DNA of 64,000 nucleotides. It comes from a virus. The stretch spans positions 58,464 to 122,463 of the IMG/VR virus record IMGVR_UViG_3300045012_000066; one strand, written 5' to 3'. Under the pieces are notes generated by a model that was given only the letters and a program-made list of their open reading frames with translations, made no database searches and was not told the DNA's origin. Numbering within the stretch: the first letter of the stretch is position 1; each line of letters starts with the position of its first letter. This document shows positions 22,864-49,339 of this stretch, one piece after another. Position numbers and translations under genes: made by a program.

Positions 22864-22979
22864 TCTTGACGCCTGCCGAAAACAAGCTTAAGTATTGATT
22901 CGATAGGGACACAGGCTCCTCTTCTCAGAGAAGGGACAGGCAATGGCTCTGGCGACAACGCCAGAGCCATTTCTATTTG
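22864..22979 (+). promoter_or_regulatory. Late leader module A (promoter, GACRC box, P1, terminator-like hairpin)
   Basis: TTGACG 22866; GACACAGGC 22908; ATGGCTCTGGCG-ACAA-CGCCAGAGCCAT 22943-22970 followed by TTCTATTTG. Confidence 0.6.
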
Positions 22980-25139
22980 CGGCTCATGTACTCCAACAGG
23001 ACCATCGTCGATAACTTGGAGCAGTTCGAAGCGCAGGAACGGTGGATGCCTATCTACCATACCTACGACGAGGTGCGCGAGTTCATCGCCTACATCGACT
23101 CGCTGACCAAGATCGAGTCGAACTCCAAGACCAGCTATATCTCCGTGGTGAAGCCGATCAGCGGCCAGCGCCAGAAGGACATTGCCCGCTGGGTGGAAAA
23201 CGAGCAGGTGTTATGCGGCTTCGACAGCAGCTACTGGGAGCAGAACTACGCGTGGGTCTGCGACGAAAAAGGGCAGATTTTTAAATTTCATAATCGCAAA
23301 TCGCAGGATGTGTTTGACGCTGTCATCGCCGACTTCGATGAGCGGCAGGTCTCTATCGAATTACTAATCCTGAAGGCACGGCAGGTGGGCATCTCCACCA
23401 AGACGGCGCTGAAATTTATTCACCGGCTGATGTTCATCCCGCACACGCAGGCGGTGATGGCGTCGGTGATGAAAGAAAAGTCGGAACTGATCGGGCGCAT
23501 CCTCGATACCGCGTACAATCGCTCGCCATGGTGGCTGGTGCCGCGCCGCATGCCGAAGCGGTCGTTCGACAACGGCTCCATCCTCTCCATTCAATCCGGT
23601 ATGCAGGCCACTGGACTGGCGCAAGGCTGGACGCCCACCTGCGTCCATGTTTCCGAGCTTGCTGACGTTCCGAATCCCAAGGTCACCATCGAGGAAGGAT
23701 TGTTCCGCGCCGCGCACTCATCCAGAAACCTGTTCATGGTTCTCGAAGGAACGGGTGGCGGCAACACCGGATGGCTGGCGGAGACATGGAGAGCGGCGAA
23801 GGCGGATTGGCCCAAGGGGCTGGCTCGTCTGTTCCCTATGTTTATCCCTTGGCCCATGTGCCCGGACATCTATCCGGAGCCGGACTGGCTCAGAAAATTC
23901 CCCGTGCCCGCCGAGTTCGAGAGCCGCCAGATGCACGACATCACGCGGAAACACGTGACCAAGTGTGAGTCGTATATCCGTAACACGCCCTACCTCGCCA
24001 AAATCGCTGGCACTGGCTGGCGCATGCCGGTCGAGCAGAAGTGGTTCTGGCAGTTCTACTACGACGCGGCCTGCAAGAACCACACGCAGAAGACGTGGTC
24101 TGCGCAGATGCCCGCCGACGATTATGAGGCGCTGACCGGCGTGCATGACACCGTCTTCGATCCCGAAGTGCTGGCCGAGGTGGAAGACCGTATCTACGAA
24201 GTCGAATCCGACGACTACAAGCGCAAGCGCAAACAGCCGGTCGAGATATACGCCATCACCGGCCACGATGTAGACGAGGTCTTCTACCCGCCAGAAGAGC
24301 GCATTGACTGGGAAAAAGAAGTGGTACGCGTCGAGTGGGACTCATATCGCGGCCACCACTACGAGTGGGACATGATTCCACTGCTCACGCTGGACGAAGA
24401 CAACGAGCGGAACACTCTGGACTACCTGCTGATCTACGAATGGCCCAAGAGGGGACAGCGCTACTCCTGCGGGATCGACACGGCAGACGGGCTGGGCAAA
24501 GAAGACGAAGAGCGCACCTGTCTGTCGGTGGCCAAAAACCGCTTTGGGGGAGACTGCGACCAGCAGGTCGCCGAGCTTACGTCGAATCGTATCAACTCCG
24601 CGCAGGTCGTCGCCTTTGCCGCCTGCGTAGGAGCGCTGTACGGGCCAGCCTGCCCGGATGCGAGGGGTATGAAGTACTGCATCGAGCAGATTCAGGGGCC
24701 GGGAGACACCTGCCAACACCAGTTGAAGATGATGGGCTTCTTCAATCACCATATCCCGCGCCGTTACGACTCGAAAAAGATCAGAGACGAGTCATCGAGA
24801 AAAGAAGGCTTCTATGCCAGCACGTGGTCCATTCCCCTGCTCATGACGCGATTCGTCGAGGCAGTGAATGGCGGCTGGTACGAGCCACGGTCGAAGTGGC
24901 TCATCGAGGAGTTGCGCACGCTGGAGCGCCACGTCACTACCAACAAATCAAAAATGGAGCACCAGACCGGCAAGTTTGATGATCGCGTACGCGGCGCGGC
25001 GATGTCGTACTTCACCGCGCACGACATGGACGTGCTGACGGATCGGGCACAGAAACGCTACGCGCTGCCGGTGAACAAGCGGCCCGTGGCCTACAAAGCG
25101 GCGTGTAGCGCCAGTCGGGCATCAGTGGGGAATTGGTGA
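22977..25139 (+). CDS. terL: Terminase large subunit
   Basis: Walker A LKARQVGIST, Walker B HVSE, VLEGTGGG, RNase H-like YSCGIDTADG and KFDDRV; start may be ATG 22986. Confidence 0.92.
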   Translation: MRLMYSNRTIVDNLEQFEAQERWMPIYHTYDEVREFIAYIDSLTKIESNSKTSYISVVKPISGQRQKDIARWVENEQVLCGFDSSYWEQNYAWVCDEKGQIFKFHNRKSQDVFDAVIADFDERQVSIELLILKARQVGISTKTALKFIHRLMFIPHTQAVMASVMKEKSELIGRILDTAYNRSPWWLVPRRMPKRSFDNGSILSIQSGMQATGLAQGWTPTCVHVSELADVPNPKVTIEEGLFRAAHSSRNLFMVLEGTGGGNTGWLAETWRAAKADWPKGLARLFPMFIPWPMCPDIYPEPDWLRKFPVPAEFESRQMHDITRKHVTKCESYIRNTPYLAKIAGTGWRMPVEQKWFWQFYYDAACKNHTQKTWSAQMPADDYEALTGVHDTVFDPEVLAEVEDRIYEVESDDYKRKRKQPVEIYAITGHDVDEVFYPPEERIDWEKEVVRVEWDSYRGHHYEWDMIPLLTLDEDNERNTLDYLLIYEWPKRGQRYSCGIDTADGLGKEDEERTCLSVAKNRFGGDCDQQVAELTSNRINSAQVVAFAACVGALYGPACPDARGMKYCIEQIQGPGDTCQHQLKMMGFFNHHIPRRYDSKKIRDESSRKEGFYASTWSIPLLMTRFVEAVNGGWYEPRSKWLIEELRTLERHVTTNKSKMEHQTGKFDDRVRGAAMSYFTAHDMDVLTDRAQKRYALPVNKRPVAYKAACSASRASVGNW

Positions 25140-25528
25140 TGAAAAATACGCAGCTAAGAAATAAGGTCGTGTACTGGGTGGACCGGAACCAGCAGCTTTA
25201 CATGGGCCTGCCGGAACAGTTTCCCGCGCCATTCGGGATGGAAAGAATTATCTGCGCCACTGCCCAGCAGGCCGAGTACTGGTCGAAGCGTATGCGCGAG
25301 CAGGAGCGAGTCAGAGAAGAGGCGAAGGACGAGGAGCGCGAGAAGGTCGAGGGGCCGATCCGTAAAAACCTGCGCAGCCACATCCTGCATCTGGCCGGGA
25401 ATGCCCGCAACAACATGAACCGCGATTTTCTTCTGATGCACCTTCGCCAGTACGACCAGCGTGCGGACCTCACGAAGACGAGGCGGACCAGCTATCTGCA
25501 CAGCGAAGCGTTTGAGCAAGGGCGTTAA
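25133..25528 (+). CDS. Hypothetical protein between TerL and portal
   Basis: 131-aa ORF, coupled to terL stop. Confidence 0.7.
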   Translation: MVMKNTQLRNKVVYWVDRNQQLYMGLPEQFPAPFGMERIICATAQQAEYWSKRMREQERVREEAKDEEREKVEGPIRKNLRSHILHLAGNARNNMNRDFLLMHLRQYDQRADLTKTRRTSYLHSEAFEQGR

Positions 25529-25530
25529 TT

Positions 25531-27630: not shown

Positions 27631-27648
27631 GATTAAACTTCCGGGAGA

Positions 27649-27933: not shown

Positions 27934-28021
27934 GCTGCTGCGCCTAACTGCGCCTGATCTGCGCCTATCTTCCATACCTTTGAGTTAAGCTCGCAAGTAT
28001 TGCAGATTCTGCAAAATAAAA

Positions 28022-28142
28022 TCTTGACGACAGGGAATAGTTAGGCTTAGGTTTTTATGAAGATAAGTTGAGACGCAGACTCCTCAGTAGGTACTGGGAT
28101 AGGTCATGGCTCTGGCGGAAACGCTAGGGCCATTTTCATTTG
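28022..28142 (+). promoter_or_regulatory. Late leader module B
   Basis: TTGACG 28024 + 18 nt + TAGGTT; GACGCAGAC 28072; ATGGCTCTGGCG-GAAA-CGCTAGGGCCAT 28106-28133 followed by TTTCATTTG. Confidence 0.65.
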
Positions 28143-28172
28143 ACCTAGCCCCAACCGAAAAAGGAGACTACC

Positions 28173-28277
28173 ATGGCCGGTCGTCGTCGTCACACCGCTG
28201 CTGTAACCCACATCAGGAAAGTCACCCGCAAGCGCCGCACCCGTCGTAGCGGCAAGCGGTCAGCCATCAAGGCGTAG
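28173..28277 (+). CDS. Protamine-like basic peptide (34 aa)
   Basis: Manual: AAGGAG SD, MAGRRRHTAAVTHIRKVTRKRRTRRSGKRSAIKA (14 R/K). Confidence 0.65.
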   Translation: MAGRRRHTAAVTHIRKVTRKRRTRRSGKRSAIKA

Positions 28278-28664: not shown

Positions 28665-29618
28665 ATGCCAACCGTTGAAGAGGTTTTGAGACAAAGCGGA
28701 TTTACGGATCAGCAGATCAGCGAGATGGATGCGCGAGCGATCACTGCCTTTACCGGCGTGCTCGGCCAAGCAGAGAAAGAACGGCAGGAAGCCAAGGCTG
28801 CGCAGGACGCAGCCGAACTCGCACAGCGTAGCAACGTCGATTTTTACGAAAACCGCATCGCGCCCAGCCTGACAGCGTGGGAAGAAGAGAAGCAGCGGCT
28901 CGAAAACGACCGCGCCAAGGCGAATGCGGAAGCGGCCTTCTATCGCGTGCAGGCCGAAGAGGCCAAGAAAACCGGCTTTATCCCTGCCGAAGCTCCCGGA
29001 TTCGATCCCGCCAAGTTCGCTCCTCCCGCAAATGGTCAGGTCCGCGATCCGAATAACGGTCGCTACGTGGCTGGCGTACCCGGTGCGACCCCCGGTTCCC
29101 CAACTTTCAATGTGAATGAGTTTGCTGCTAAAGCAGGTGATGCCATGGGCATCATCGCGGATATCAACTGGAACTACCAAACATTGTTCGGCAAGCCGCT
29201 CCCCGTTTCCCCAACGGAATTAATTAAAAAGGCCGATGAACAAAAGCTCGATCCCATGACGTACGCGTCCCGGATATTTAATTTCGACGCCCGCCGACAG
29301 GAGCTTCAGAAGCAGGAGCAGGAAGCCCGCGACCAGAAGCTTCGCGAGGAAGCGATAGCCCCATACGAGCAAAAGCTCAAAGAAAAGGACGAGGAGTCCA
29401 AGAAGGCTTTGGCTAACAAGGATCGCGAGTGGGCGGAGCGCACCGGCAACAACCCCGATATACGCAGGCCGCAGGACAACGCCCAGATGTCATCCATTGC
29501 CAAGGCGGCGAAAACCGACCCCGCGAATTTCGACCCCTTGTTATTGAACGATCAGCAGCGCAGGTCGCTGACCGCGCAGATGATCCGCAAGGACATGGAA
29601 GCCAATACAGCCGCGTGA
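28665..29618 (+). CDS. Capsid scaffolding protein (putative)
   Basis: Charged coiled-coil protein directly upstream of the capsid gene. Confidence 0.65.
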   Translation: MPTVEEVLRQSGFTDQQISEMDARAITAFTGVLGQAEKERQEAKAAQDAAELAQRSNVDFYENRIAPSLTAWEEEKQRLENDRAKANAEAAFYRVQAEEAKKTGFIPAEAPGFDPAKFAPPANGQVRDPNNGRYVAGVPGATPGSPTFNVNEFAAKAGDAMGIIADINWNYQTLFGKPLPVSPTELIKKADEQKLDPMTYASRIFNFDARRQELQKQEQEARDQKLREEAIAPYEQKLKEKDEESKKALANKDREWAERTGNNPDIRRPQDNAQMSSIAKAAKTDPANFDPLLLNDQQRRSLTAQMIRKDMEANTAA

Positions 29619-29667
29619 CCTGCGGCGGACGAAGTTTTGAAGTTACCGACGATAGGAGATATCAGCC

Positions 29668-30909
29668 ATGCCGACCGATCCGCTTTACAACGAGATAGAC
29701 GCCAGTAACTTAGAGTCTGTCCGGCGCAATGTGGTATTCAACAACCTATTCGTCGGCACCCCCTTTCAGGCGAAGCTGCGACGCGCTGGCGTATGGGATG
29801 AGTTCCTTGGCGGCGCGGGCATGATGGAAGGCATCCTGTACGGTCGCACCCAAGGCGCGGCTGTCAATCCCGGCCAGACCATCACGGTCACCCGCCAGCA
29901 GATCAACACCGGAATTAAATTCCTGCCGAAGGCGTATGCCACGTGGTATCCGCTCGACGACTGGGAGATGGATGACGGCTCGGGCACGGGCGGAGTGATC
30001 AACTCCGGCCCATCGTTGATCGTTGACTCGTACCAGCTATACATGGAGAACCTTGTCCTGACCATGAACACCATGCAGGAAATGGACTCCTTCCGGCACG
30101 GTCAGGCGTCATCGGCATTCATCACCGATAACCGGACCAAGACCATCAACGGTCTGGACGAGGCGCTGAATAACGGGATCGATCCGTCCGTCTATGGCAA
30201 CGTCTACAAGTCCTACGGCGGACAGCAGCGCAACGGCAACGTCGGCGTCGCGCTGAACTCGACACCCATCTACTGCGGCACTCCGACCGGAGGCACCGGC
30301 CAGATCGACTTCGCAGTGCTGATGCAACTGTGGTCGCAGTGCAAGGTGACAGGCGGCTCTCCTTCTCTGGGTATCACGAATGTGTTCGGCTTTAAGGCTG
30401 TCGCTATCGCACTCGATGCGCAGCGCCGCGATATTTCGAACACGCGTCACGATATCAAGTGGGATGGGCTGAACTTTAACGGTGTGGATATCTACGCCGA
30501 TCCTCTGGCTCCTTCGGCGCAGGCACAGAACTACATCGCGCTTGGGTCGGCGGTCGGAGGTGGACAGGGTAACGCCAGTCTGGTGGATGGTGTTGGATCG
30601 AGCACCACGACCGTCGCTTTCACCACGCCGCAGTTCGTCAACCCGACGACTGGCGCACCGATGCCGGTATCGCCGACAGGATCGGGGTTGCCGTCCAATC
30701 AAGCCATTTCACCGGGTGAGGTTCTCTACTTCTTGGAGCCGGAGTCGTTCAAGATCAGGCCGACTAATAAGAAGGGCTGGAACTTCGGACTGCGCCGTGC
30801 GCCGATGCCGAACAACGTAAGCATCGATGCCTTGTTTATGAGGCTGGGTATCAACCTCTATAACACGCAGCCGCGCCACAATTGCTACGCATTTAGCTTC
30901 TCCGCATAA
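29668..30909 (+). CDS. Major capsid protein (putative)
   Basis: 413 aa after portal and scaffold; AGGAG SD; size and position consistent with an HK97-fold capsid. Confidence 0.75.
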   Translation: MPTDPLYNEIDASNLESVRRNVVFNNLFVGTPFQAKLRRAGVWDEFLGGAGMMEGILYGRTQGAAVNPGQTITVTRQQINTGIKFLPKAYATWYPLDDWEMDDGSGTGGVINSGPSLIVDSYQLYMENLVLTMNTMQEMDSFRHGQASSAFITDNRTKTINGLDEALNNGIDPSVYGNVYKSYGGQQRNGNVGVALNSTPIYCGTPTGGTGQIDFAVLMQLWSQCKVTGGSPSLGITNVFGFKAVAIALDAQRRDISNTRHDIKWDGLNFNGVDIYADPLAPSAQAQNYIALGSAVGGGQGNASLVDGVGSSTTTVAFTTPQFVNPTTGAPMPVSPTGSGLPSNQAISPGEVLYFLEPESFKIRPTNKKGWNFGLRRAPMPNNVSIDALFMRLGINLYNTQPRHNCYAFSFSA

Positions 30910-30939: not shown

Positions 30940-31779
30940 ATGCCGCAGCAGCAGATCATCCCGACATGGTTGGCGTGGAACAACGCTAACTTTGCCACCG
31001 AGTCCGGCATTCAGGACTTTCGTACAGGGCAGAACTTTCCTGCCGGTGGACTAGGTCTGGGCGACTACTTCGATGCGACGGAAAAGGAAGCCAATACCGC
31101 ATCCTTCCTCCAGAACGGTCTCCTTCACTCGGGTCGATACCGCCTCGTGCAGGTGGATTCAGGTGCCACGGTTGCCAATGTCAAGACGGGCACAGTCGGC
31201 TTTATACGCCCCGGCCAGTTTTTGCAGGCGATAGCGATTGCCGTTCCCGGCACGGGCGGGACTCCCGGTACTTACAACATCCTAGCGACACCGGGCAGCG
31301 GCGCTGGCGTCGGCGCGGCGATTCAAGTGGTGGTCGGGCCGACAGGCGGCATTCAGTCAGCAAGCGTGCTTAAGGGCGGATTTAATTATGTATACGCCGC
31401 TCCCACATTCGACCTGACCGTCACTGGTGTTACTGGCGCGGTGCTGTTATCGCGCCTGAATTCCTCGCCCAATATCGTGACGAGTTCAGACGCCGGACTT
31501 GTGCCACGTCCGGTCGTGTTTCTGAATGCAATCACGCCGGGGAACTTCGGCTTCGTGCAAGAACTAGGTCAGGCCACTGTGTTATGCGGCCCGACTGCTG
31601 GCTCCGGTACTCAGGGTCAGGGTGACTGGGTGAACGTCACCATCGCCAGCGGAACCGTAACGTCCACGCCCCTAACCGGGTCGCCGCTTGGGCTGACTGT
31701 CGGGAAAGCGTTGGAGCCGGTTTGGGCCAACACGATGTTGAAAATCTATATGACCAATATTCCGGTGGTTCAGGACTAA
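30940..31779 (+). CDS. Capsid decoration/cement-like protein, paralog 1
   Basis: Follows MCP; PVVFLNAITPGNFGFVQELG; similar along its full length to the next gene. Confidence 0.6.
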   Translation: MPQQQIIPTWLAWNNANFATESGIQDFRTGQNFPAGGLGLGDYFDATEKEANTASFLQNGLLHSGRYRLVQVDSGATVANVKTGTVGFIRPGQFLQAIAIAVPGTGGTPGTYNILATPGSGAGVGAAIQVVVGPTGGIQSASVLKGGFNYVYAAPTFDLTVTGVTGAVLLSRLNSSPNIVTSSDAGLVPRPVVFLNAITPGNFGFVQELGQATVLCGPTAGSGTQGQGDWVNVTIASGTVTSTPLTGSPLGLTVGKALEPVWANTMLKIYMTNIPVVQD

Positions 31780-31789: not shown

Positions 31790-32617
31790 ATGCCACAGCA
31801 ACAAATCATCCCGACTTGGTTAGCTTGGAATAATGCTAACTTCGCGACTGAGTCCGGTCTTCAGGATTTAAGAACAGGTGCAAACTTTCCCGCTGGCGGT
31901 TTGGGTCTCGGCGATTACTTTGACGCAACGGAGAAGGAAGCGAACGCTGCATCCTTTGCCGCAAATGGCTTACTCCATGCGGGCCGGTATCGTCTGGTGC
32001 AGGTGGATTCCGGAGCGACGGTCGCCAACGTCAAAACTGGCACGGTTGGCTACGCACGCGTTGGCTCGTTCGTACAGGGCGTACTTGTCTCTGCTCCCGG
32101 TACAGGTGGAACTCCGGGCACGTATAACATCCCAGCTACACCGGGAAGCGGTGGCGGCAGCGGCGCGGTACTTACGGTCGTCGTCGGATCGACCGGCGTG
32201 ATCCAGTCTGCCAGCGTGGCTCAGGGTGGATTTAATTATGTCTCTGCGCCTACTTTCCCGCTGACTGTCACAGGTGTGACCGGCGCTACGCTATCCGCGC
32301 AATTGAATTCTTCAGCCAATCTTGTAACCAGTCAAGACAAGGGTGTTTCAGCGCGTCCCGTGGTCTTCCTGAATGCGATTACGCCGGGGAATTTTGGCTT
32401 CGTGCAGGAGTTGGGTCTGGCCACTGTGCTGGCTGGTGCGTCTGCTGGCACTGCCGGTGTCGGCGACTGGGTGAATGTCGGCGCAGGCGGAACGGTAACG
32501 ACAACTGCGGCGACCGGGTCGGCGATTGGAGCGACTATCGGAAGCGCGGTCGATGTGGCGGTTGCGAACTCGCTGTTCAAAGCCTACCTGTCTGAGGTTC
32601 CGGTAGTTCAAGACTAA
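31790..32617 (+). CDS. Capsid decoration/cement-like protein, paralog 2
   Basis: Same N-terminus MPQQQIIPTWLAWNNANFATESG and C-terminus PVVQD. Confidence 0.6.
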   Translation: MPQQQIIPTWLAWNNANFATESGLQDLRTGANFPAGGLGLGDYFDATEKEANAASFAANGLLHAGRYRLVQVDSGATVANVKTGTVGYARVGSFVQGVLVSAPGTGGTPGTYNIPATPGSGGGSGAVLTVVVGSTGVIQSASVAQGGFNYVSAPTFPLTVTGVTGATLSAQLNSSANLVTSQDKGVSARPVVFLNAITPGNFGFVQELGLATVLAGASAGTAGVGDWVNVGAGGTVTTTAATGSAIGATIGSAVDVAVANSLFKAYLSEVPVVQD

Positions 32618-32971: not shown

Positions 32972-33005
32972 GGCGCAACACGAAGTCTCGACCCCTCCCG
33001 GAAGA

Positions 33006-33052
33006 GACACAGGCAAACGCCCTTGCGGGGGAGCATCTTCGCAAGGGCGTTT
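33006..33052 (+). terminator. GACRC box plus 13-bp hairpin (weak member of the leader family)
   Basis: GACACAGGC 33006; AAACGCCCTTGCG/CGCAAGGGCGTTT 33015-33052; weak U tract. Confidence 0.4.
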
Positions 33053-33079
33053 GAGTTATAGGGGCAAAGGAGAAACGTC

Positions 33080-33196
33080 ATGGCGAAGCGGAAGAAGGTA
33101 TCGGTCCAGTGCGATAGCGATATGGGGCAGGGTGAAGAAGCTCCGGTGAAAAAGACCACGCGGAAGAAGACACGCAAGCGGGTGTCGAAGAAATAA
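33080..33196 (+). CDS. Small basic peptide (38 aa)
   Basis: Manual: AAGGAG SD, MAKRKKVSVQCDSDMGQGEEAPVKKTTRKKTRKRVSKK. Confidence 0.6.
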   Translation: MAKRKKVSVQCDSDMGQGEEAPVKKTTRKKTRKRVSKK

Positions 33197-34490: not shown

Positions 34491-36875
34491 ATGAGCGGCG
34501 GCTACGGCGGCACCGGACAGGCAGCACTTCTGCGCCAGAATCAGCAGGTAGCTCTGTTTCAGCAAGCGACAAACATTGTCGGCAGGGCGAGCATTGCCAT
34601 CCAACCGGAGCGCCTTTCGTTTCCGACCTCGTTATCCGTCCAAATTTATTTCACTGACGTAAACGGTAATCCGTCCAGCCCCGGCGCGTTCGAGGTGGAT
34701 GTCCAAGCATCGGACCTCGATCAGGATTCGCAGTATTACACCGCCAGCACATGGACCGGCCCTCTGAACGCAGGAGATGTGGGCCGAATTGAACTAGGCT
34801 CGATCCTCGCCAGATATGTCCGCATCGTAGTGAAGTCGCTGACCAATGCTGTCTACACGACCGCATACCTCACCAGCTTCGCTGGCGGAGGCGGTGGCGG
34901 CAGCAATGGCGGAGGTGGTGGCAGTGGCCCCGCATTGCAGGTCAACGGGACACCGACTGCGGATCAGGCACTTTTAAATCTGGTGGCCGGTCCCAATGTG
35001 ACCATCGCCGACAATGGCGGTGGTGCTGTTCAGATTTCTGCTGCCGGTGGCGGAGCACCCTCCGGCCCTGCTGGCGGCGACCTGACGGGCACGTACCCCA
35101 ACCCAACTGTGAATGGGATTGCTGGCGCTGCCTTACCAGCCAACTTCTTAGCTAGTGGCGCAGCCAGTCTACCCGCTGTCACAATGACGGGCGCACCGTT
35201 CGTAGGGACCGCCATCACCGCGACGCCGCTCCTTCTTCTTAGCCCGAGCGGCACACCTGCTGTTTCGACGTGGATTGCAGCCGGAACTTTCCTTGGCATC
35301 AACTCACCGACTGGCTTCTCAGGAAATTTAATCGACACCAAGCTCAACGGTGTTACCGTCTTCAGCGTAGGACAGGCGGGCGGGGGAAATGTCCAACTCA
35401 GCACATCGTTTCAGGTCATTCCAAATCTCTTCACAGCGACTTCAAACTCGCTTCTCGCGTGGTTTAGTGCCACGACGATAACAGGCGCTCGCGACACGAC
35501 CCTTGGTCGCGCAGCGGCAGGCATATTGCAACTGAACTCCGGATCGACGGCAGGGAATACAGGCCAGCTTAACCTTGGTGCAATTCAGTTGATCGGTGGC
35601 ACGGCTGCTGCATCGGTATCGCAGTTGCTCTGCACCACTCCGCCGTTTACGGCAGGCACGGCCACGACTAACTTGCCGGTTCTCTATCTCAATAGCAGTG
35701 CGATCTTGCCGACGTGGAGCACTCTTGGCACCATACTCGGCATCAATGCTCCAGCCGGGTTTGCCGGGAACTTTATCGACCTCCGTCTCAATGGAGGTGC
35801 CTCTGGTTTCGCTGTCGCTAACAACGGAACGACAAGCGTCGCGAATTTAAATATCGGCACATTTTTCACCGGGCTGGCTTCTCTCTCAAGAATGGGGATG
35901 AACAACGCGACGTATCTGGCGTGGTCGTCCACCACCGGTACGTCGGCAGGGATGGATACCACCCTGTCCCGCGCCAATCCCGGCGTACTGCAACTCGCCA
36001 GCAGCGCGACACAAGGGAATAACGGCGAACTTGATCTCGGCTCCCTTCAGGTGATTGGGGGCACCGCTGCGGCGTCCGTGTCACAGATGTATTGCACCAC
36101 GCCACCGTTTACAGGTGGCACCGGCACGACAAATTTCCCAGTGTTGTACCTGAATAGCGGTACGACACAGCCGACAACCTTCAGCGTGAGCGGCACAGTC
36201 CTTGGGATCAACGCTCCCGCTGGATTTACCGGGAACCTCGCGGATTTCCGCGTCAACGGAGGAGCAGCAGTACTTAGCGTGAACGCAGCCGGAGGCGTCA
36301 CAACCCCTAGCTCTGTCTCGGCTACTGGCGGCTTCGGTGTTACTTCTACCGTAACGATAAATTCCACACTTACCCGATTCCAAAATGCTTACGTTTTGGG
36401 ATGGTCGTCCACCACTTCCATCGTATCGGCATCGGACATAACTCTCTCCCGTGTTGCTGCTGGCATCCTTGGCGTAGGTGCGGTAAATGGAGCCGGAGTC
36501 CAAGGCACGATTCAGTTGGGCCAGATCATGGGCGGCGGCGGTACGCCCAGTATTGCGGCAGGTGCAGCCGCTGGGACAGCCCCAACGGTCACCATCGTCT
36601 CCAATAGCTCCAATCTGGCGGGCAGTGTCAGCGTCACGATTGGCACGGCACCCGTTGGTGGTGCGCCGATCCTGACCATCACCTTCGCAAACGCCTTCAC
36701 CTTCGCCAACGCTCCTTTTAGCATGCTCACACCCGGCAACGCCAATAGCGCCGCACTGACCGGCCCGACACAGGTCTACACAACAGAGACTACGACCACG
36801 ATTGTCATCAACGCTGGAGCAACCGCGCTGACAGCGGGCACGCAATACGTCTGGAAGTATCACGTAGTCGGGTAG
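34491..36875 (+). CDS. Tail fibre-like protein with internal repeats
   Basis: G/T/A/S-rich; about three degenerate repeats (GINAPAGFxGN..D.RLNG; DTTLSR...G.LQL); N-terminus shared with the next gene. Confidence 0.65.
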   Translation: MSGGYGGTGQAALLRQNQQVALFQQATNIVGRASIAIQPERLSFPTSLSVQIYFTDVNGNPSSPGAFEVDVQASDLDQDSQYYTASTWTGPLNAGDVGRIELGSILARYVRIVVKSLTNAVYTTAYLTSFAGGGGGGSNGGGGGSGPALQVNGTPTADQALLNLVAGPNVTIADNGGGAVQISAAGGGAPSGPAGGDLTGTYPNPTVNGIAGAALPANFLASGAASLPAVTMTGAPFVGTAITATPLLLLSPSGTPAVSTWIAAGTFLGINSPTGFSGNLIDTKLNGVTVFSVGQAGGGNVQLSTSFQVIPNLFTATSNSLLAWFSATTITGARDTTLGRAAAGILQLNSGSTAGNTGQLNLGAIQLIGGTAAASVSQLLCTTPPFTAGTATTNLPVLYLNSSAILPTWSTLGTILGINAPAGFAGNFIDLRLNGGASGFAVANNGTTSVANLNIGTFFTGLASLSRMGMNNATYLAWSSTTGTSAGMDTTLSRANPGVLQLASSATQGNNGELDLGSLQVIGGTAAASVSQMYCTTPPFTGGTGTTNFPVLYLNSGTTQPTTFSVSGTVLGINAPAGFTGNLADFRVNGGAAVLSVNAAGGVTTPSSVSATGGFGVTSTVTINSTLTRFQNAYVLGWSSTTSIVSASDITLSRVAAGILGVGAVNGAGVQGTIQLGQIMGGGGTPSIAAGAAAGTAPTVTIVSNSSNLAGSVSVTIGTAPVGGAPILTITFANAFTFANAPFSMLTPGNANSAALTGPTQVYTTETTTTIVINAGATALTAGTQYVWKYHVVG

Positions 36876-36889: not shown

Positions 36890-38266
36890 ATGAGTGGTGG
36901 CTATGCCGGAACAGGACAATCGACGCTTTTGCGCCAGAACCATCAAATAGCCCTGTTCCAGCAAATGACGGGCATTGTTGGCGCGGCGAGTATTGCTGTG
37001 CAACTGGAGCGCGTTCGCCTTGCAGCCCCCACTTCAGTCGCTGTCCAAATTTATTTCACCGACGCGCAGGGAAATTCATCCAGCCCCGGTGCCTTTGAAG
37101 TCGATATTCAAACTTCAGACATCGATCAGGACTTGCAATACTGCACCGCTGAGACATGGACTGGCCCTCTGAACGGTGGCAACGCGGGCCGGGTTGTGCT
37201 GGGGCCGGTCTTTGCCAAATACGTTCGGATATTTGTGAAATCGCTGGCCAATGCAGCCGTTTATACAACTGCCTATCTCACCAGCTTTGCAGGCGCAGGG
37301 AGCGGCAGTAGTAATGGTGGCGGCGGAGGTGGAGGAGGTGGTCCTGTGTTACAAGTCAATGGCACGCCGACCGCAGATCAGGCGCTACTCAATCTGGTGA
37401 ATGGTCCCAACATAACCATCACCGATGAAGGGGCAGGAGCCGTTCAGATATCGGGTACGGGAAGTCTCAGCGGAAATGCTCCTCCGTTCTTCCGGTATTT
37501 TGGCGACGGCTCCGACGGCTCGTGGACTGACCTTGTTCCCGCTATCGGCCTCTTTGAAAACTGGTATACGACCTTCACTCTCAATGCTGGAGTCACGCTC
37601 ACTGCCGGATCGGGTGGACAGTATCCGATGGTCATTCGTGCCACACAAAAAATTACCATCGCGGGGACCATTACGATGCCCGCATTACGGCCTTTCCCGA
37701 TGGGCTTGGGCGGAGGCACGGGCGGTGGTGGTGGTGGCGGCGCTGCGGCGGGTACGGCGGGCACATTCATGGGCTACGCGGGGTCAAATGCTGGCACAGG
37801 CGGAGGTGGGGGCGGCATCGGGCTTGTGGGTGCGGTCGGCAATACGATGCCTCCCAATACGTTGCGCTTTGTGCTCACGACGATGGGTTTCCCCGGTTCT
37901 CCGGCCAGCGTCCCGAATACGCAAATTGGCGCATACGGCGGAACCGGAGGAGGGCAGGGAGGTTCGAGCGGTGGGGCTGGCGGCGGTGGCGGGGGCGCGG
38001 TGTTCCTGATTGCCCCGATCATCGATTTTCAATCGACAGCCGTCATCAACGCTCCCGGCGCTGCTGGGACGGCAGCTTCCGGCGCTAGTATCGGCGGTGG
38101 CGGCGGAGGTGGCGGCGGACTTGTCGTTCTCGCGGCTGCGACCTTCCTGAATCAGGCGGGGACGATCAACCTCCAAGGCGGTGCTGGCGGAGCGAGCGGT
38201 GGCACCGGCTCCGGTGCTGGCGGTGCTGGCGGAGTTGGCAACTTTAGATTTATGACCATCAGTTGA
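36890..38266 (+). CDS. Tail fibre-like protein with glycine-rich C-terminal domain
   Basis: ~185-aa N-terminus paralogous to 34491; FGDGSDG then GGGGGG-rich domain. Confidence 0.65.
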   Translation: MSGGYAGTGQSTLLRQNHQIALFQQMTGIVGAASIAVQLERVRLAAPTSVAVQIYFTDAQGNSSSPGAFEVDIQTSDIDQDLQYCTAETWTGPLNGGNAGRVVLGPVFAKYVRIFVKSLANAAVYTTAYLTSFAGAGSGSSNGGGGGGGGGPVLQVNGTPTADQALLNLVNGPNITITDEGAGAVQISGTGSLSGNAPPFFRYFGDGSDGSWTDLVPAIGLFENWYTTFTLNAGVTLTAGSGGQYPMVIRATQKITIAGTITMPALRPFPMGLGGGTGGGGGGGAAAGTAGTFMGYAGSNAGTGGGGGGIGLVGAVGNTMPPNTLRFVLTTMGFPGSPASVPNTQIGAYGGTGGGQGGSSGGAGGGGGGAVFLIAPIIDFQSTAVINAPGAAGTAASGASIGGGGGGGGGLVVLAAATFLNQAGTINLQGGAGGASGGTGSGAGGAGGVGNFRFMTIS

Positions 38267-39035: not shown

Positions 39036-39370
39036 CTCCCGCAATGGAGAAGGCTAAGCACTGGATTGTGACCACCACCGTAGCCATGCTGGGCGGCGGC
39101 GCTGCGGCGGGATTTTCTGCCGCGATGGACCCGACAAAGTACCACTTCCCGCAGGACTTCGGCTCCGGCAAGCTGTGGAAATATGTCTTCATGGGCTGGG
39201 CGCTGACCTTCGGTGGCGTCCTCATTCACTCCCCGCTTGGCCAGAAGGTAATCGCCATTTCCAAGCAAAGCAAGGAACAACTGGATCAGACGCAAAAAGA
39301 CTTGGATCAGGCCAAGGCGGATTTAAAATCTGCCGCCGCTGCGAAGCCAGCGGACAGCACTAAATCTTGA
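39032..39370 (+). CDS. Lysis-cassette membrane protein (2 TM plus coiled coil)
   Basis: Two hydrophobic segments, QSKEQLDQTQKDLDQAKADL heptads. Confidence 0.5.
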   Translation: MTPAMEKAKHWIVTTTVAMLGGGAAAGFSAAMDPTKYHFPQDFGSGKLWKYVFMGWALTFGGVLIHSPLGQKVIAISKQSKEQLDQTQKDLDQAKADLKSAAAAKPADSTKS

Positions 39371-39493
39371 TGACACCGCAGTTGGAAGCGGTGTATAAAT
39401 GCCGGTAAGACACGCGCTCTGCGAGATATCGACGAGCAATAGGCGGCGGCTTCCCGGTGAAACATCAACCCGGAAGCCGCCGCTTTTCGTTTT
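39370..39493 (+). promoter_or_regulatory. Late leader module D
   Basis: ATGACA-18-TATAAA with GGAAGCGG in the spacer; GACACGCGC 39409; GCGGCGGCTTCC/GGAAGCCGCCGC 39443-39483 + TTTTCGTTTT. Confidence 0.6.
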
Positions 39494-39514: not shown

Positions 39515-39739
39515 ATGAAGCGGAAAAGACATTCAACTGAAGGGTCAAAGGCGGGGCAGGCTGCTGATTTCGGAAATCTGCCCACTCACCCGAACGCGCC
39601 AGAGAAGGCGACCTCCAGAAGGGATGTGGCGAATTCCTTCGTGAGTGGAGGCGGCAGGGAAGGGCACGTCGGACACCGCAAGGGCATCGGCAAAGGCAAG
39701 GCCAGCCGTCGCAGGAAGGCCGTAATCGCGAAGAAGTAG
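39515..39739 (+). CDS. Small basic protein
   Basis: AAGGAG SD; K/R-rich 74 aa. Confidence 0.65.
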   Translation: MKRKRHSTEGSKAGQAADFGNLPTHPNAPEKATSRRDVANSFVSGGGREGHVGHRKGIGKGKASRRRKAVIAKK

Positions 39740-42871: not shown

Positions 42872-42977
42872 TAGAATGATTCGGTAATTTAAATTTTTTG
42901 GGACGCATGCCCCTCCGCAGGCGCGGGGATAAGCAATGGCTCATGACCAGCAATGGTCTTGGGCCATTTTTATTTTG
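42872..42977 (+). promoter_or_regulatory. Late leader module E
   Basis: TAGAAT 42872; GACGCATGC 42902; GGGGATAAGCAATGGCTC...GCAA loop...GGGCCATTTTTATTTTG. Confidence 0.6.
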
Positions 42978-42992: not shown

Positions 42993-43247
42993 ATGGCGGC
43001 ACTTACCACCAAGCAGCGTAACCGGCTTCCGAGCAAAGTCTTCGCTCTGCCGGGGCGGCGCTATCCGCTTGATACCGCCAATCGCGCCAGCAGTGCGTTG
43101 TCTCGTATTTCCGCACACGGTACGCCGCAGCAGAAAGCTATCGTGCGCAGGAAAGTGCATACGCGTTATCCGGGCATCGCGGTGAGCGGGCTACAGAAGG
43201 GCAACAGAAAACATGGGCAGCGCAAGCGCGTCAGCGCACGGAGGTGA
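42993..43247 (+). CDS. Small basic virion protein
   Basis: GGAGG SD; LTTKQRNRLPSKVFALPGRRYPL motif recalled from phage head-associated proteins. Confidence 0.7.
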   Translation: MAALTTKQRNRLPSKVFALPGRRYPLDTANRASSALSRISAHGTPQQKAIVRRKVHTRYPGIAVSGLQKGNRKHGQRKRVSARR

Positions 43248-45098: not shown

Positions 45099-45107
45099 CG
45101 AGGATCA

Positions 45108-48100
45108 ATGCCTCCACAAAATTACCAGCGAGACAAGGACGGCGTCCGCTTCGATCTGATCGGCGGCATGAATACCATGCTGCCTACCGATTTAATGCAG
45201 CAGACGTTCCCTTATCTCCAGAACGTGCGCCGCAACCTTGCCGGACGCGCCATCTCGCGGCCTACTCTCTCGGGCAACTTCCTCCCCGCCGTCATCTTGC
45301 CGCCCACCTCGATGACCCTGATGAACGACCCGTACATGGTGACGCCGCCAGCGCTTGGGCCGACTACGTATGTGCTCATCCTTGGCGCGTCGGGGTTTTT
45401 GTATGTCAACGCGACGCAGTTAGTGTCCGGGCTGACCGGCCTGCCGCTGAGTTTCATCATCTTCGGCCCGAACACCACGCCGCAGCCATGGTGCTATGTG
45501 GCCGATGGGTCCATGGCAGTCACCATCCCGAATTACCCAGCCACGATTTACGGAAACCCCATCGCCGGAATGGTGAAGGTGCGTTCCGACAAGACTGTGT
45601 ACAAGACGGGGATCGCGGAGCCGCAGGTTGCGCCGAACGTCACACTGACCCAAGGCGCGGGTCCAAACTGGACGATCTATCGGTATGTCTATCGCTCCTC
45701 AACCACAGGAGCGATTTCCAATCCGTCCCCGGAATCCGGAGCGCTGGTGGCGGAGCAAGGTACGGATATCGGTGGTCCGATCAATGCGACGGCCACCGGG
45801 GTCACGTACAACGCCTCTCAGTACGAACCCAATCCAGACGATGCCGATCAGCTTCGGACCAGCGGGAACGTGGGCGGCGGAGTGTTAACGGATTTCATCA
45901 TCGTGACCGGCTTCGGCCTAGACGTTCCGGAGAATGTGCCCATCCAAGGCGTGACTGTTTCGATGAACTGGTATGGACAGAACGCCGGAGCGGGCCTGCT
46001 GTTCAATGTGTCCCTCTACTATCAGGGCAATCAGTTTGGGGCACCGAAATCTCCGGGCATATCCAACACCGGGCCGGACGACACAACGGCCACCACGACG
46101 CAGGGAAGCAACATTGATAGCTGGGGCGCGACTCTGAGTCCGGGAGTGGTCAACGATCCCACCTTTGGCTTCGGCGTGCAGATCGAGGCGGTCGTTGCCG
46201 ACAGCACGAACAGATCGTTCATCAACAGCTTCACGCTCACGGTGTATTACGCCAACCAGAATTCCACGGTCACCGCAACTGCTTCTCCTGACCCGCAGGT
46301 GGATAAGATCGATTTCTATCGCAGTGATCCGGGCTTGGATAACTTCACCTATGTAGGAACGATTTTAAATAGCGGGGCTGCGGCTGGACTGAGCGACACT
46401 CTGAGCGATCTGGCGGTCGCCGACAATCCTACCTTGGAGTTCGATAACTACGAGCCGTTCCCATCTATCGACCTGCCGCGTTCGGGAATCTGTAACGTGG
46501 CGGCGGTGAGTCAGTTTGTGAGTGGCGTCCAGATCGCCTCTCCGGGCAGCGGGCAGGCGAATGGAACCTACGTCATCCCGTCAACCGGTGGCGGAGGGAC
46601 GGGCGCGACGGTACAGATTGTGATTGCAGGCGGAATCATCACTACAGCCATAGTCCTGACTGGTGGGTCCAACTACACCTCATCGCCGACATTCCTAGTC
46701 CCGACGACTACTGGCACGACGGGAACTCTGGCCGCTAGCATCAGCCCGATCAATCCGGGAGCGCCGAACGTTACGTGGGTATCAGGGGATCAGTTCAACG
46801 TGCGCTGGCTTCCCGGTGACATCCTTCTTCTGGGCGGTTATCCCGGCTCCACGCAGCAGATTGCTTGGACGCTCTACGCCCGACCCATCTCGCCGACGCA
46901 GTTGCAGGTGTATCAAAGCATCATCGATCCAACCACCGGCATCCCCACATTTAATTTTCCTGCGGCAGGAACCAACCTGACCTTTGAGATCAGCGCAGCC
47001 ACGCTGGCGGCGCAACCTAGTCCTGTCATCTGGGGGCCGACGCCGGAGAATCAGGGATCATTTTATTTCGGTGTGGACCCACTGAATCCCGGTGATCTCG
47101 TGTGGTCGAAGGGAAATAATTTCGACTCCGCTCCCGACACCAATCGCATGATCGTCACATCTCCTTCTGAAATGCTGATGAACGGAACGATCACATCAGA
47201 GTTGAGCACTGTGTTTTCGACCGAGCGCTTCTGGCTGATCTATCCGAACTTCGCCGACGCTATCGCGACCGTGACCGGAATTACAGGTCCGCAGTGGACA
47301 CTGACACAGGCGCAGGCCACGCGTGGGCTGTACATGCGCTATGCGATTGCTTCTCTTGGTTCAATGATTGCTTACCGGGCTAAGGATTGTATTGCGGTGT
47401 CGATGGGCGGAGGCCCGGAAGAATCGATCACCGACCCCATCTATAACCTGTTTCCCCATGCCGGTGCGGTCCCGCAGCCGGTCGTGATCGCCGGGAATAC
47501 GGTGTATCCGCCCGATGATACCAAGCCTGCGGCGCAGACCATCACGCTTACGCCGAGCTACTTGTTTTATGACTACCAAGATACGACGGGCACGCCGCGA
47601 ACGCTGGTCTTCGATCTTCAGGCGAAAGGCTGGGGCGTCGATGTTTACAATCCAACCGTTAATTGCCACTTGTCCACGGTAGCCGGATCAGCCGCCCGAC
47701 TTCTGGCTGGTTGTTCCGATGGCACCGTGCGCGTGATTGGTGAAGGTCTGCCCAGCACGGAAACAGGTACGTCGATCATCCTGACGCGCTCTGAGAATGG
47801 CGGCGATGCGCGAGCACTGAAGCGCATGGGAGACATATTCTTCAAGGGTGAAATTCAGGCCAGCGCTCCCGTCACTTTGCAGTTCTGGCAGACGCAGTAC
47901 ACCCAGCAACTCTCAGGATTCTCTCCGGCAGTCCTCGCCGGGACCGGGAGCGTGAAGTACTTCATCGTCGATTTCACATCCGGCTTCGGCGAAGATGTGG
48001 ATGATATCGGCGCTGTGCTTTCATGGCCACTTGGCAGCAGTGACATTCTTGACTTATGGCAACCGGGTTGGACGTGGTTACCGGAAACAGTTCAGGATCG

Positions 48101-48749
48101 GCCATCGGACTGGGACGATGGCGGAACTGCGGGAAATAAATATGTGCAGGGCTTGCTGCTTGAATGCGATACGTTTGGCCAACCGAAAACCTTTCAGGTA
48201 GAGTCCGACGATGGCATCCTGCACACGCCTGTGCCCATGCCCTTCACCCAGAATGGGCAGGCGGTGGTGTCGTTCACCTTCAATCCTCCATTTACCGCGC
48301 ACATGATCCGCATCGTTTCAACCGATGGGGTTCCATGGAGATTCGGCCCGTCCGGAGGCTGGACATCTTCGTGGATTACGCAGCCCTATCCGGAGGCTAG
48401 CTCTTCGTGGACGACGCAGATGTCGAGCTTGGGACTGCTGGGCTGGAACCATATTTACCAGATCAATCTGGCTTACATTTCAGCTACGCCGATTACGCTG
48501 ACGATTAACACCGATCAGGGACCGTTTACGCTCACTTACCCTCCCAGCGCGGGCAATGTACCGTCGAAGATTCTCCTGAAGTGCCCAAGGAATAAGTGGA
48601 AAGTCGTTTCCTTTACCGCCACATCCACCGCCGCATTTTCGCTCTGGAAAGACCTGACGGAAGTGTGGGTGAAATCGTGGGGAAGCATGGGAGAGTACCA
48701 GAAGGTGAATCCCTTCGGCGGTGACTCATCGCCTGCTGCCCCAATTTAA
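45108..48749 (+). CDS. Podoviral tail nozzle / stabilisation protein (putative)
   Basis: 1213 aa, beta-rich, between adaptor and ejection proteins; GAGG SD. Confidence 0.55.
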   Translation: MPPQNYQRDKDGVRFDLIGGMNTMLPTDLMQQTFPYLQNVRRNLAGRAISRPTLSGNFLPAVILPPTSMTLMNDPYMVTPPALGPTTYVLILGASGFLYVNATQLVSGLTGLPLSFIIFGPNTTPQPWCYVADGSMAVTIPNYPATIYGNPIAGMVKVRSDKTVYKTGIAEPQVAPNVTLTQGAGPNWTIYRYVYRSSTTGAISNPSPESGALVAEQGTDIGGPINATATGVTYNASQYEPNPDDADQLRTSGNVGGGVLTDFIIVTGFGLDVPENVPIQGVTVSMNWYGQNAGAGLLFNVSLYYQGNQFGAPKSPGISNTGPDDTTATTTQGSNIDSWGATLSPGVVNDPTFGFGVQIEAVVADSTNRSFINSFTLTVYYANQNSTVTATASPDPQVDKIDFYRSDPGLDNFTYVGTILNSGAAAGLSDTLSDLAVADNPTLEFDNYEPFPSIDLPRSGICNVAAVSQFVSGVQIASPGSGQANGTYVIPSTGGGGTGATVQIVIAGGIITTAIVLTGGSNYTSSPTFLVPTTTGTTGTLAASISPINPGAPNVTWVSGDQFNVRWLPGDILLLGGYPGSTQQIAWTLYARPISPTQLQVYQSIIDPTTGIPTFNFPAAGTNLTFEISAATLAAQPSPVIWGPTPENQGSFYFGVDPLNPGDLVWSKGNNFDSAPDTNRMIVTSPSEMLMNGTITSELSTVFSTERFWLIYPNFADAIATVTGITGPQWTLTQAQATRGLYMRYAIASLGSMIAYRAKDCIAVSMGGGPEESITDPIYNLFPHAGAVPQPVVIAGNTVYPPDDTKPAAQTITLTPSYLFYDYQDTTGTPRTLVFDLQAKGWGVDVYNPTVNCHLSTVAGSAARLLAGCSDGTVRVIGEGLPSTETGTSIILTRSENGGDARALKRMGDIFFKGEIQASAPVTLQFWQTQYTQQLSGFSPAVLAGTGSVKYFIVDFTSGFGEDVDDIGAVLSWPLGSSDILDLWQPGWTWLPETVQDRPSDWDDGGTAGNKYVQGLLLECDTFGQPKTFQVESDDGILHTPVPMPFTQNGQAVVSFTFNPPFTAHMIRIVSTDGVPWRFGPSGGWTSSWITQPYPEASSSWTTQMSSLGLLGWNHIYQINLAYISATPITLTINTDQGPFTLTYPPSAGNVPSKILLKCPRNKWKVVSFTATSTAAFSLWKDLTEVWVKSWGSMGEYQKVNPFGGDSSPAAPI

Positions 48750-48754
48750 ATTTT

Positions 48755-49219
48755 ATGAGTACAGGAAGCACAGCATTACCGACATTCGCACCAAGGATCG
48801 AGCCGACGATCCCTCGCGACGTACAGCGCCATCTTCAATTGATCTACCAGACGCTGAATAACCATACGTCAGCCTTTCAGGCGCTGCCCAAGGCGACCAG
48901 CAACAGCACGACGGCTACCAATAAGACCTTTTTCCCGAGAATCTCTCCGTCGATTCCCCATGACGTACAGAACCATCTTCAATTAATTTACGGGGCGCTC
49001 AATAATCACACGGTTGCCTTCGGCAAGCTTCCGAAAGTAACCGCGACGCCGGAGACAGCCGCCACGCTTCAGCAGCAAGCGACGACGAAGTCGCTCTTTC
49101 CCCGCGTCGAGACGACGATTTCGCCATTAGTGCAACTGCACCTGCAACTTATCTACGGGAAACTCGACAACCACGCGCAGGCGTTCGCATTCTACAAACA
49201 GCACATGCCCACGAGCTAA
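48755..49219 (+). CDS. Three-repeat protein
   Basis: Three copies of F.PR(I/V)...(I)...VQ.HLQLIY..L.NH..AF. Confidence 0.7.
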   Translation: MSTGSTALPTFAPRIEPTIPRDVQRHLQLIYQTLNNHTSAFQALPKATSNSTTATNKTFFPRISPSIPHDVQNHLQLIYGALNNHTVAFGKLPKVTATPETAATLQQQATTKSLFPRVETTISPLVQLHLQLIYGKLDNHAQAFAFYKQHMPTS

Positions 49220-49235
49220 AGGAATGAATTCTCCG

Positions 49236-49339
49236 TTGCTTAACCGGCTGGAAGCGGCGTATTATCGGCGCAAAGAGACACGCGATCCCCGTGCGGACAG
49301 TCGGCGGCTCAACCTAACTGGTTGAGCCATTTGTCGTTT
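49236..49339 (+). promoter_or_regulatory. Late leader module F
   Basis: TTGCTT-18-TATTAT with GGAAGCGG in the spacer; GACACGCGA 49277; GGCTCAACC/GGTTGAGCC 49306-49328 + ATTTGTCGTTT. Confidence 0.55.

Follow-up and report, generated by a model that had tools for sequence, protein, structure and literature searches.

Introduction

In phage lambda, the late genes are controlled by stops located just after promoters. Beyond the lambdoid phages, such signals and the factors acting on them are, to our knowledge, almost unknown. Here we describe a family of short structured RNA modules found in the last 64 kb of the single-contig virus record IMGVR_UViG_3300045012_000066 (122,463 bp; ~57% G+C), which derives from an uncultured soil phage. 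This whole stretch of 64,000 nucleotides is called the window, and positions are given within it unless stated otherwise. Three modules (M1, M2 and M3) precede the terL, head and tail genes, each ending in a terminator-like hairpin. Together with their copies in related phages they form one structured RNA family, whose members may, in our tentative reading, gate the transcription of the late genes.

Several described systems are close to these modules in layout. The Q21-like protein BrrG belongs to the Bartonella gene transfer agent (BaGTA), in which a promoter is followed by a nearby terminator with the structural genes behind (bioRxiv 10.1101/2024.11.20.624540). The put element of phage HK022 is ~70 nt long and made of two stem-loops 1-2 nt apart; putL is promoter-proximal, putR lies further inside the transcript, and a pause follows soon after stem II (PMC9378689). 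In the Pseudomonas phage 201phi2-1, cappable sequencing on the Oxford Nanopore platform (ONT-cappable-seq) revealed terminators right behind promoters before the major capsid gene, as well as small RNAs derived from 5' untranslated regions (5'UTRs) (PMC11512511). Finally, T4-like phages possess promoter-stem-loop (PeSL) cassettes, located in early, hyperplastic regions and tied to gene shuffling (PMC2839356, PMC4122927).

Architecture of the modules

An earlier note on this DNA, made from the sequence alone, had claimed three homologous modules ahead of the terL, head and tail genes. They are indeed present at these places and align over ~80 nt with a mean column identity of 78%. In the whole 122,463-bp genome, the strict motif GACRCA-2/3-C-N-CCTC has exactly three occurrences, all on the + strand and all in M1-M3. 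Compared with shuffled controls, the three folds reach z values of -3.5 to -4.8. A covariance model (R1) scores M1-M3 in their own genome at 77-93 bits (E 1e-17 to 1e-21), and a scan of that genome returned no other + strand match at E<=10.

The members share a common layout. From 5' to 3', a box of consensus GRGAYRCA is followed by a 3-bp helix (P0) closing around a hairpin (P1), two unpaired bases, a second hairpin (P2) and a U run, the box-to-tail length being 72-77 nt. P1 has a CC/GG base and a variable top, and the P0/P1 region includes a C-containing bulge and a GAYAR internal loop. In P2, the GGCUC/GRGCC base is invariant, the upper stem varies freely, and the loop is mostly of the GNRA type. 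The U run is interrupted, in the form AUUUYNAUUU. The short closing helix P0 is a third helix, absent from the earlier description.

M1 is headed by a predicted promoter (22866-22894, + strand) composed of a -35 TTGACG (22866-22871), a 17-nt spacer and a -10-like TAAGTA (22889-22894); ahead of its orthologous copies, TTGACG-N16/18-TTAGTT/TAAGTT is conserved. The M1 RNA (22906-22978, + strand; 83.8 bits; fold of -34.6 kcal/mol, z -4.8) starts with the box GGGACACA (22906-22913) and continues with P0 (22915-22917/22939-22941), P1 (22919-22925/22929-22935) and the P2 terminator (22942-22971, loop ACAA), the U run extending to 22978. The ATG of terL, at 22986, is found 7 nt past this run.

The predicted promoter of M2 (28024-28053, + strand) has its -35 TTGACG at 28024-28029, an 18-nt spacer and a -10-like TAGGTT at 28048-28053. 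An A-rich stretch (28013-28021) adjoins it upstream, and both this stretch and the -35 are kept in all head-operon orthologues. The M2 RNA (28070-28141, + strand; 92.6 bits, z -4.5) comprises the box GAGACGCA (28070-28077), P0 (28078-28081/28102-28105), P1 (28083-28088/28093-28098), P2 (28106-28133, loop GAAA) and a U run to 28141.

At M3, a promoter is doubtful: a -10-like TAATTT (42885-42890, + strand) is present with no -35 at 16-18 nt, whereas the orthologues of M3 carry a -35 TTGTCA, TTGCCA or TTGCAA at 17-18 nt. The M3 RNA (42900-42976, + strand; 76.6 bits, z -3.5) harbors the box GGGACGCA (42900-42907), P0 (42908-42910/42933-42935), P1 (42913-42918/42923-42928), P2 (42936-42967, loop GCAA) and a U run to 42976. 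The first gene behind it encodes 84 residues (42993-43247, + strand), and its orthologues stand behind the orthologous module in relatives. The three P2 loops are those that the earlier note had given; its assignment of a promoter to each module stands for M1 and M2 but is doubtful for M3, the -10-like element there having no -35 at usable spacing. A further GGGACGCA is found at 49873-49885, 2 nt ahead of the ATG of the gene at 49883; it is Shine-Dalgarno-like, has no hairpins around it and is probably a chance occurrence.

Covariation and extent of the family

The compensatory changes that had been proposed for both stems are borne out by alignments of the relatives' copies, in which P0 covaries too. 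The terL relatives in IMG/VR possess orthologous modules before their terL and head genes. With 13 copies, MAFFT and RNAalifold recovered P0, P1 and P2, with double changes in 8 of 19 pairs. With 23 sequences, double changes are seen at 12 of the 19 pairs and 96.7% of the cells are paired. Among 90 distinct sequences, 15 of the 19 pairs show changes on both sides and 94.7% of the cells are paired; this alignment was fitted to the covariance model and therefore favours the structure, and the independent MAFFT/RNAalifold result agrees with it. In shuffle tests of the 23- and 90-sequence sets, none of 500 shuffles reached the observed values, and slid registers were 20-53% paired (31-53% for the larger set).

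Applied to related contigs, R1 gives between two and four + strand copies per contig in three of them, and a marginal match in a fourth. A broader search was made with a second model (R2) among capsid relatives (92 contigs, 64-100% identity), of which 80 loci were kept. It yielded 139 + strand matches, 90 of them distinct, from 78 sources. All 139 lie on the coding strand; the - strand gave just two matches, both of them P2 palindromes read backwards. While the upper stems covary, the unpaired positions and five base pairs of P2 are nearly invariant, which argues for sequence-specific recognition.

No Rfam 15 family matches anywhere in the window at its gathering threshold, nor convincingly at permissive ones, the best sub-threshold scores being those of FinP (20.2 bits, against 45) and ctRNA_p42d (21.5 bits, against 50). 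In a sample of 151 Acidobacteriota genomes, real copies were found only on a contig of a metagenome-assembled genome (MAG) that carries a related capsid region (see below); two other matches covered mainly the terminator part.

Promoters, terminators and position

A promoter of the form TTGACR-N16/18-TAnnnT scoring at least 7 of 9 precedes 68 of the 93 distinct copies (73%), compared with 8% of random positions. It ends within 30 nt of the box, in the range of 8-20 nt and typically at 13-18 nt. The -10 is weak (consensus TAGTTT or TAGAKR), and for this reason a simple sigma-70 scan flagged no module promoter. It is the conservation of these elements that marks them as putative promoters. A promoter internal to the module, with its -10 in the U run, was rejected by inspection, as the -35 position would fall in the variable upper stem.

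On the 3' side, at least 6 T within the 10 nt after P2 are found in 89 of the 93 distinct copies (96%); random positions show this in 1.6% of cases. The P2 stems have a median length of 13 pairs, and their loops are of the GNRA type in 53 of 88 cases, a loop that is common in plain terminators too. A terminator scan flags M1, M2, M3 and a looser site, M5, described below; the modules are the only strong + strand terminator-like hairpins in the late region of the window. P2 and its U run bear the signature of a predicted intrinsic terminator. The terminator-like hairpins that the scan finds in the early region end in uninterrupted runs of 5 or 6 U, whereas the module tails are conserved as interrupted, ATTTCTATTT-like runs, as expected of a tunable stop.

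The modules occupy orthologous places in relatives (64-100% capsid identity), namely upstream of terL and of the head, capsid and tail genes. For those copies behind which a start codon with a Shine-Dalgarno was identified, its distance from P2 is 20-90 nt, most often 30 nt. In the window, 7-44 nt separate the U run from the next start codon. This gap is too short for another promoter, so that terL, the head, tail and later genes can be transcribed solely by reading through P2. This need for read-through, evident from the sequence itself, provides the best argument in favour of a gate.

Behind the 93 distinct copies, the next gene is a basic micro open reading frame (micro-ORF) in 50 cases and the capsid gene itself in 16, while some others are followed by terL or a gene of the tail block. 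The pre-capsid copies have a promoter in 1 of 16 cases and a U-rich tail in 13 of 16, which indicates that the RNA is not strictly promoter-proximal. In relatives with ~85% capsid identity (L090-L131), a promoter-less copy is found ~16-100 nt before a capsid gene starting with GUG (locus ~9860-9985). The phage of the window has no pre-capsid copy (gap 29618-29668). In some relatives (L005, 106-190; L008, 5918-5998), terL shares its frame with an AUG located in the 5' arm of the terminator, and automated gene calling could lengthen terL by ~14 codons across the hairpin.

Looser sites

The earlier note had also listed two sites resembling each other, here M4 and M5, and a weaker sixth copy. The likeness of M4 and M5 stands: a 13-nt motif covering spacer and -10 is exclusive to these two sites, and M4 has a box-like AGACACGCG and a strong U-tailed hairpin. 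At M5, the predicted promoter (49236-49265, + strand) reads TTGCTT-18-TATTAT, and GGAAGCGGCGTAT spans its spacer into the -10. The M5 RNA (49275-49339, + strand) consists of the box GAGACACG (49275-49282), a degenerate P1, a P2 (49306-49328) with a GGCUC/GAGCC base and a U-rich tail (49329-49339). The segment 49269-49342 scores 30.5 bits with R1 and 48.8 bits with R2 (E 3e-9), as a weak but significant predicted family member. The first gene behind it encodes 169 residues (49352-49861, + strand).

The predicted M4 promoter (39370-39399, + strand; ATGACA-18-TATAAA) is the best sigma-70-like one of the set, with GGAAGCGGTGTAT spanning its spacer into the -10. Its leader (39407-39493, + strand) harbors a box-like AAGACACGCG (39407-39416), a hairpin (39416-39437), a 14-bp terminator (39442-39483) and a good U run (39484-39493), for a fold of -46.1 kcal/mol (z -4.8). 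Neither R1 nor R2 matches M4, which has the layout alone in common with the family; the cassette is conserved in one relative (G001). M4 and M5 share GGAAGCGGYGTAT adjoining the -10, which could be a Q-type DNA site or a pause element.

M6 (33004-33059, + strand) stands in part as the weaker sixth copy that had been placed at 33006-33052: it possesses the box GAGACACA (33004-33011) and a 17-bp hairpin (33015-33052), but no promoter, and its U run is weak. In G001, the box and its upstream flank are kept and the hairpin is swapped for a different one. A conserved GUCUC, 14 nt upstream of the GAGAC of the M6 box, can pair with it (32981-33011), and this pairing extends over 6 bp in G001 (L074, 9533-9560).

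Comparison with known systems

The family's kind is termination control, exerted near the promoter or within the operon. In function, the modules are comparable by analogy to lambda nut/N, pR'-tR'/Q (together with BaGTA BrrG) and HK022 put; they are members of none of these systems, nor of any Rfam 15 family. The parallels with lambda pR'/tR'-Q and with HK022 put that the earlier note had drawn hold as analogies only, and the family model matches nothing in HK022.

The modules may recall lambda nut sites, where the arginine-rich N protein acts at boxA and the boxB hairpin: they display a linear box and then a hairpin with a GNRA-type cap, placed past a promoter and before terminators, at several sites per genome, and a small Arg/Lys-rich gene adjoins. 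In contrast to nut/N, the GNRA-type hairpin is here the terminator itself, P0/P1 is intercalated between box and hairpin, and the basic micro-ORF stands behind the terminator. Furthermore, the modules precede late rather than early genes, no N homologue was found, and the box is presumably unlike boxA.

The lambdoid pR'-tR'/Q arrangement, which gives the 6S RNA, likewise combines a constitutive-type promoter, a terminator within ~100-200 nt and late or structural genes behind. However, lambdoid phages have one such site per genome, as against five or six in this window; the conserved RNA fold found here is not needed by Q, and Pfam and PHROG give no Q-family protein. In the M1 orthologues, examined by eye, no conserved -10-like element lies between start site and box, and the promoter spacer is not conserved, so that it offers no evident candidate for a Q-binding DNA element.

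With HK022 put, which antiterminates without any protein by way of the beta' zinc-binding domain of polymerase, the family shares a length of ~70 nt, two stem-loops (P0/P1 and P2, 2 nt apart), promoter-proximal and internal copies, a U-rich site downstream and no evident dedicated protein. It differs in giving no model match, in a second stem and tail that have the form of a canonical terminator, and in its 3-5 copies per 20 kb ahead of late genes. The likeness to 201phi2-1 resides in a promoter-terminator pair before the capsid gene, short premature products and no annotated antiterminator; that phage is unrelated, has its own RNA polymerases, and a conserved multi-helix RNA family is not described there (PMC11512511). 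PeSLs are also short regulatory cassettes of promoter and stem-loop with many copies per genome, whereas the modules sit at fixed orthologous late-operon positions, have the promoter before the stem-loops and carry extra covarying helices. Finally, ribonucleic antiterminators (RAT) bound by BglG, SacY or LicT follow the logic favoured here, a structured RNA beside a terminator whose recognition by a protein prevents termination. In the modules, however, the overlap between antiterminator and terminator folds is not above chance.

A proposed conditional terminator before each late transcription unit

The reading that we favour, with a rough probability of 0.45, is that each module is a cis-acting transcription gate at the 5' end of a late transcription unit, read through via antitermination. 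Host RNA polymerase would start at a promoter of the sigma-70 type, whose -35 is strong and whose -10 is weak, transcribe the box and P0/P1, and then reach P2, a 13-bp hairpin with an interrupted U run. By default, most polymerases would halt there and free an RNA of ~75-100 nt; the same stop would also terminate the transcript of the preceding block. The late genes would be made once a factor, most likely a phage protein from earlier in infection, lets polymerase pass P2. This factor would recognise the conserved unpaired nucleotides (box, C bulge and GAYAR internal loop) together with the invariant base of P2. This proposal starts from the fold, its conservation, the terminator signature, the association with promoters and the requirement for read-through; to these features it would add efficient termination, regulated read-through and a factor. 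A precedent is given by phage 201phi2-1, in which mapped promoters run directly into terminators before capsid genes and were read as antitermination control (PMC11512511).

The earlier note had already taken the promoter-then-terminator order as attenuation released by an antiterminator. The layout is found in most copies and read-through is required, but the antiterminator was not found. Several points weigh against the gate. Start sites, termination and its efficiency are sequence predictions, and the interrupted U run could equally fit a constitutively leaky terminator. M3 in this genome has no usable -35, and about 16 distinct copies in relatives are promoter-less and located inside the head operon, just before the capsid gene, where a promoter-coupled gate needs none. 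Among ~126 early and middle ORFs searched against Pfam and PHROG, no match to a Q, N, NusG, sigma or RNA polymerase family was found, and two ORFs match the Pfam family Phage_ProQ_C_like at 21.3 and 13.9 bits, below its curated cut-off of 27.

The same leakiness is central to a plausible, though clearly less likely, account, the small-RNA alternative of the earlier note, in which P2 stops a fixed fraction of polymerases and constitutive read-through feeds the late mRNAs. Whether transcribed from a promoter of its own or released by cleavage from the preceding mRNA's 3' end, the abundant ~75-nt product would then be a small RNA acting in trans or sequestering a factor. Promoter, short structured RNA and terminator make up the layout of a small-RNA gene; the modules are multicopy siblings whose conserved single-stranded 5' box is a possible seed, the U run is interrupted, and the promoter-less copies sit at the 3' end of the upstream gene, like small RNAs processed from a 3'UTR. 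Premature termination does produce 5'UTR-derived small RNAs in phage 201phi2-1 (PMC11512511). However, no visible clustering of box-complementary sites is seen around the gene starts of the phage, and the best pairing partners of M1, M2 and M3 have no locus in common. Moreover, the copies are all in coding orientation and immediately precede a late gene with almost constant spacing, a placing that a free-standing small-RNA gene does not need. An unlikely alternative brings the modules closer to put: the two-hairpin RNA would bind polymerase itself and confer resistance to pausing and termination, the copies serving to load or reload it and the U run being a pause site. Size and layout are those of HK022 put (~70 nt, two stem-loops, promoter-proximal or internal; PMC9378689), the promoter-less internal copies would be reloading sites, and the absence of an antiterminator protein from the scans would be explained. 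Yet R2, run with filters off on the whole HK022 genome, gives at best 9.9 bits (E 1.5), and stem II of put is not a terminator, its pause being 21 nt downstream, whereas here a 13-bp GC-rich hairpin abuts a U run in 96% of copies. A constitutive antiterminator would also give no timing from sigma-70-type promoters.

It is improbable that the module is primarily a post-transcriptional element, either a processing or stability signal or a translational operator of the gene 30 nt downstream, with termination secondary. The P2-to-start distance of 28-31 nt in most copies, promoter-less pre-capsid ones included, and the structure retained in internal copies would suit such a role, as would three pre-capsid copies that keep the fold with a degenerate U run. 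Against it, 89 of 93 copies retain a U-rich tail, such a role leaves the association with promoters (73% of copies) unexplained, and the module overlaps neither Shine-Dalgarno nor start codon. Very improbable is a self-contained switch in which the box pairs with the 5' arm of P2 (GRG/CUC, YR/UG) as an antiterminator, a ligand or protein selecting the fold. When the nascent RNA is cut before the 3' arm, the lowest-energy fold pairs box and arm in 23 of 23 members; box variation is limited to changes keeping the pairing with the invariant arm, and the AAG of M4 matches a CUU in its own arm. But the arm is paired at a similar frequency by shuffled 5' ends (33-326 of 500), in equally stable folds, and a conserved alternative helix was rejected on this ground. 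Variation in the box consists of transitions facing U or G, by which pairing is kept automatically, and the box-arm helix, 6 bp at most, is too weak to rival a P2 of ~-20 kcal/mol unless stabilised. Scarcely credible is a leader peptide starting at the AUG of the P2 5' arm, after a Shine-Dalgarno-like GGGAYAGG, whose translation would melt the terminator. An AUG (or GUG) does stand there in most copies, 6-7 nt past GGGA; some have CUG, however, and M5 has no start codon at this place. The length of the open frame ranges from 5 to 120 codons, with a stop inside the hairpin loop in several copies, no peptide is conserved past Met-Ala, and the ribosome site would still be inside polymerase as the hairpin forms. 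With neither frame nor length conserved, this candidate was rejected.

Search for a regulator

Returning to the antitermination gate, candidates for its factor were sought among the phage's own products. Pfam searches of the 126 ORFs at E<=0.001 returned 43 families and no Q family, although a very divergent Q could escape. PHROG scans gave no antiterminator among the best 25 of 36 and the best 25 of 37 families. Neither Pfam scan gave a CAT/PRD family, a scan for the DxDGD motif found none, and a TFIIB-type zinc-ribbon match was rejected as a regulator, being below cut-off. The two Phage_ProQ_C_like ORFs are encoded on the - strand outside the window, at genome positions 49025-49282 and 25060-25314. 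They are possible RNA-binding proteins, as judged from these matches, and no link to the modules was found. A trans-acting RNA key complementary to the conserved arms was rejected as well: duplex scans of the whole genome with nine segments of the modules revealed no locus common to M1, M2 and M3 except their own antisense strands.

Another type of candidate is found directly behind the modules. The first gene behind M2 is a strongly basic micro-ORF of 34 residues (28173-28277, + strand), and similar basic starts are seen on the + strand behind M6 (33080-33196, 38 residues) and M4 (39515-39739, 74 residues). The strongly basic micro-ORFs behind 50 of the 93 distinct copies are nearly all 32-40 residues long and usually start exactly 30 nt after P2. 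Those of the window and of relatives (L046, L086-L162) begin with MAKRR.. or MAKTKR.., each with a good Shine-Dalgarno. They are of two paralogous types, one heading the head operon and the other preceding terL in relatives. No Pfam family matches the small proteins behind the modules. It is a long shot that these Arg/Lys-rich micro-proteins of 32-40 residues, encoded ~30 nt behind most promoter-bearing copies, are the missing antiterminators, in a self-amplifying, N-like switch over every late operon. Slight read-through would make the peptide, which would bind, on nascent RNA, either the box or the GNRA-capped hairpin of every copy and lock polymerase in read-through. If true, N-like control would operate in a clade of phages lacking any recognisable Q, N or sigma.

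Genomic setting

From ~11 kb on, the + strand of the window is a nearly continuous run of genes, and each + strand gap longer than 100 nt in its late region contains a module. The first gene behind M1, terL (22986-25139, + strand), is taken to start at the ATG common to relatives. The late region further encodes a 699-residue ORF in the position expected for the portal gene, the major capsid protein (29668-30909, + strand), an endolysin, a tail-fibre-like protein and a protein of 2802 residues. Few of the phage's proteins have PHROG matches, and megablast against the phage collection gave no cultured relative. Two pairs of adjacent late genes (30940-31779 with 31790-32617, and 34491-36875 with 36890-38266) are paralogous, with nearly identical N-termini of the MPQQQIIPTWLAWNNANFATESG.. 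and MSGGY.GTGQ..LLRQN.. types. Both look like tandem duplications within the structural region.

Host lead and significance

The MAG mentioned above belongs to an uncultured Acidobacteriota. Near the end of its 326-kb contig (G006, C1; ~300.7-311.1 kb; L072, L073), a capsid gene 83% identical and aligned from residue 29 is found with neighbouring head genes, and two module copies lie behind it. The 34 kb upstream on this contig show no terL or portal-position ORF, nor any other similarity to the phage. The locus may represent a remnant or a rearranged form of a prophage, or else a chimera of binning or assembly. Acidobacteriota may be taken as a lead to the host, not as proof.

With 90 distinct copies in at least 78 contigs, the family is well defined and displays strong covariation across a large clade of ~120-140-kb soil phages, in which it marks every late transcription unit with a stop signal built in. 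It provides a handle on what may be a novel antitermination factor or, besides put, another RNA that acts by itself, in a possible host phylum whose phage biology is hardly explored. The modules are, moreover, natural and sequence-diverse promoter-leader-terminator parts.

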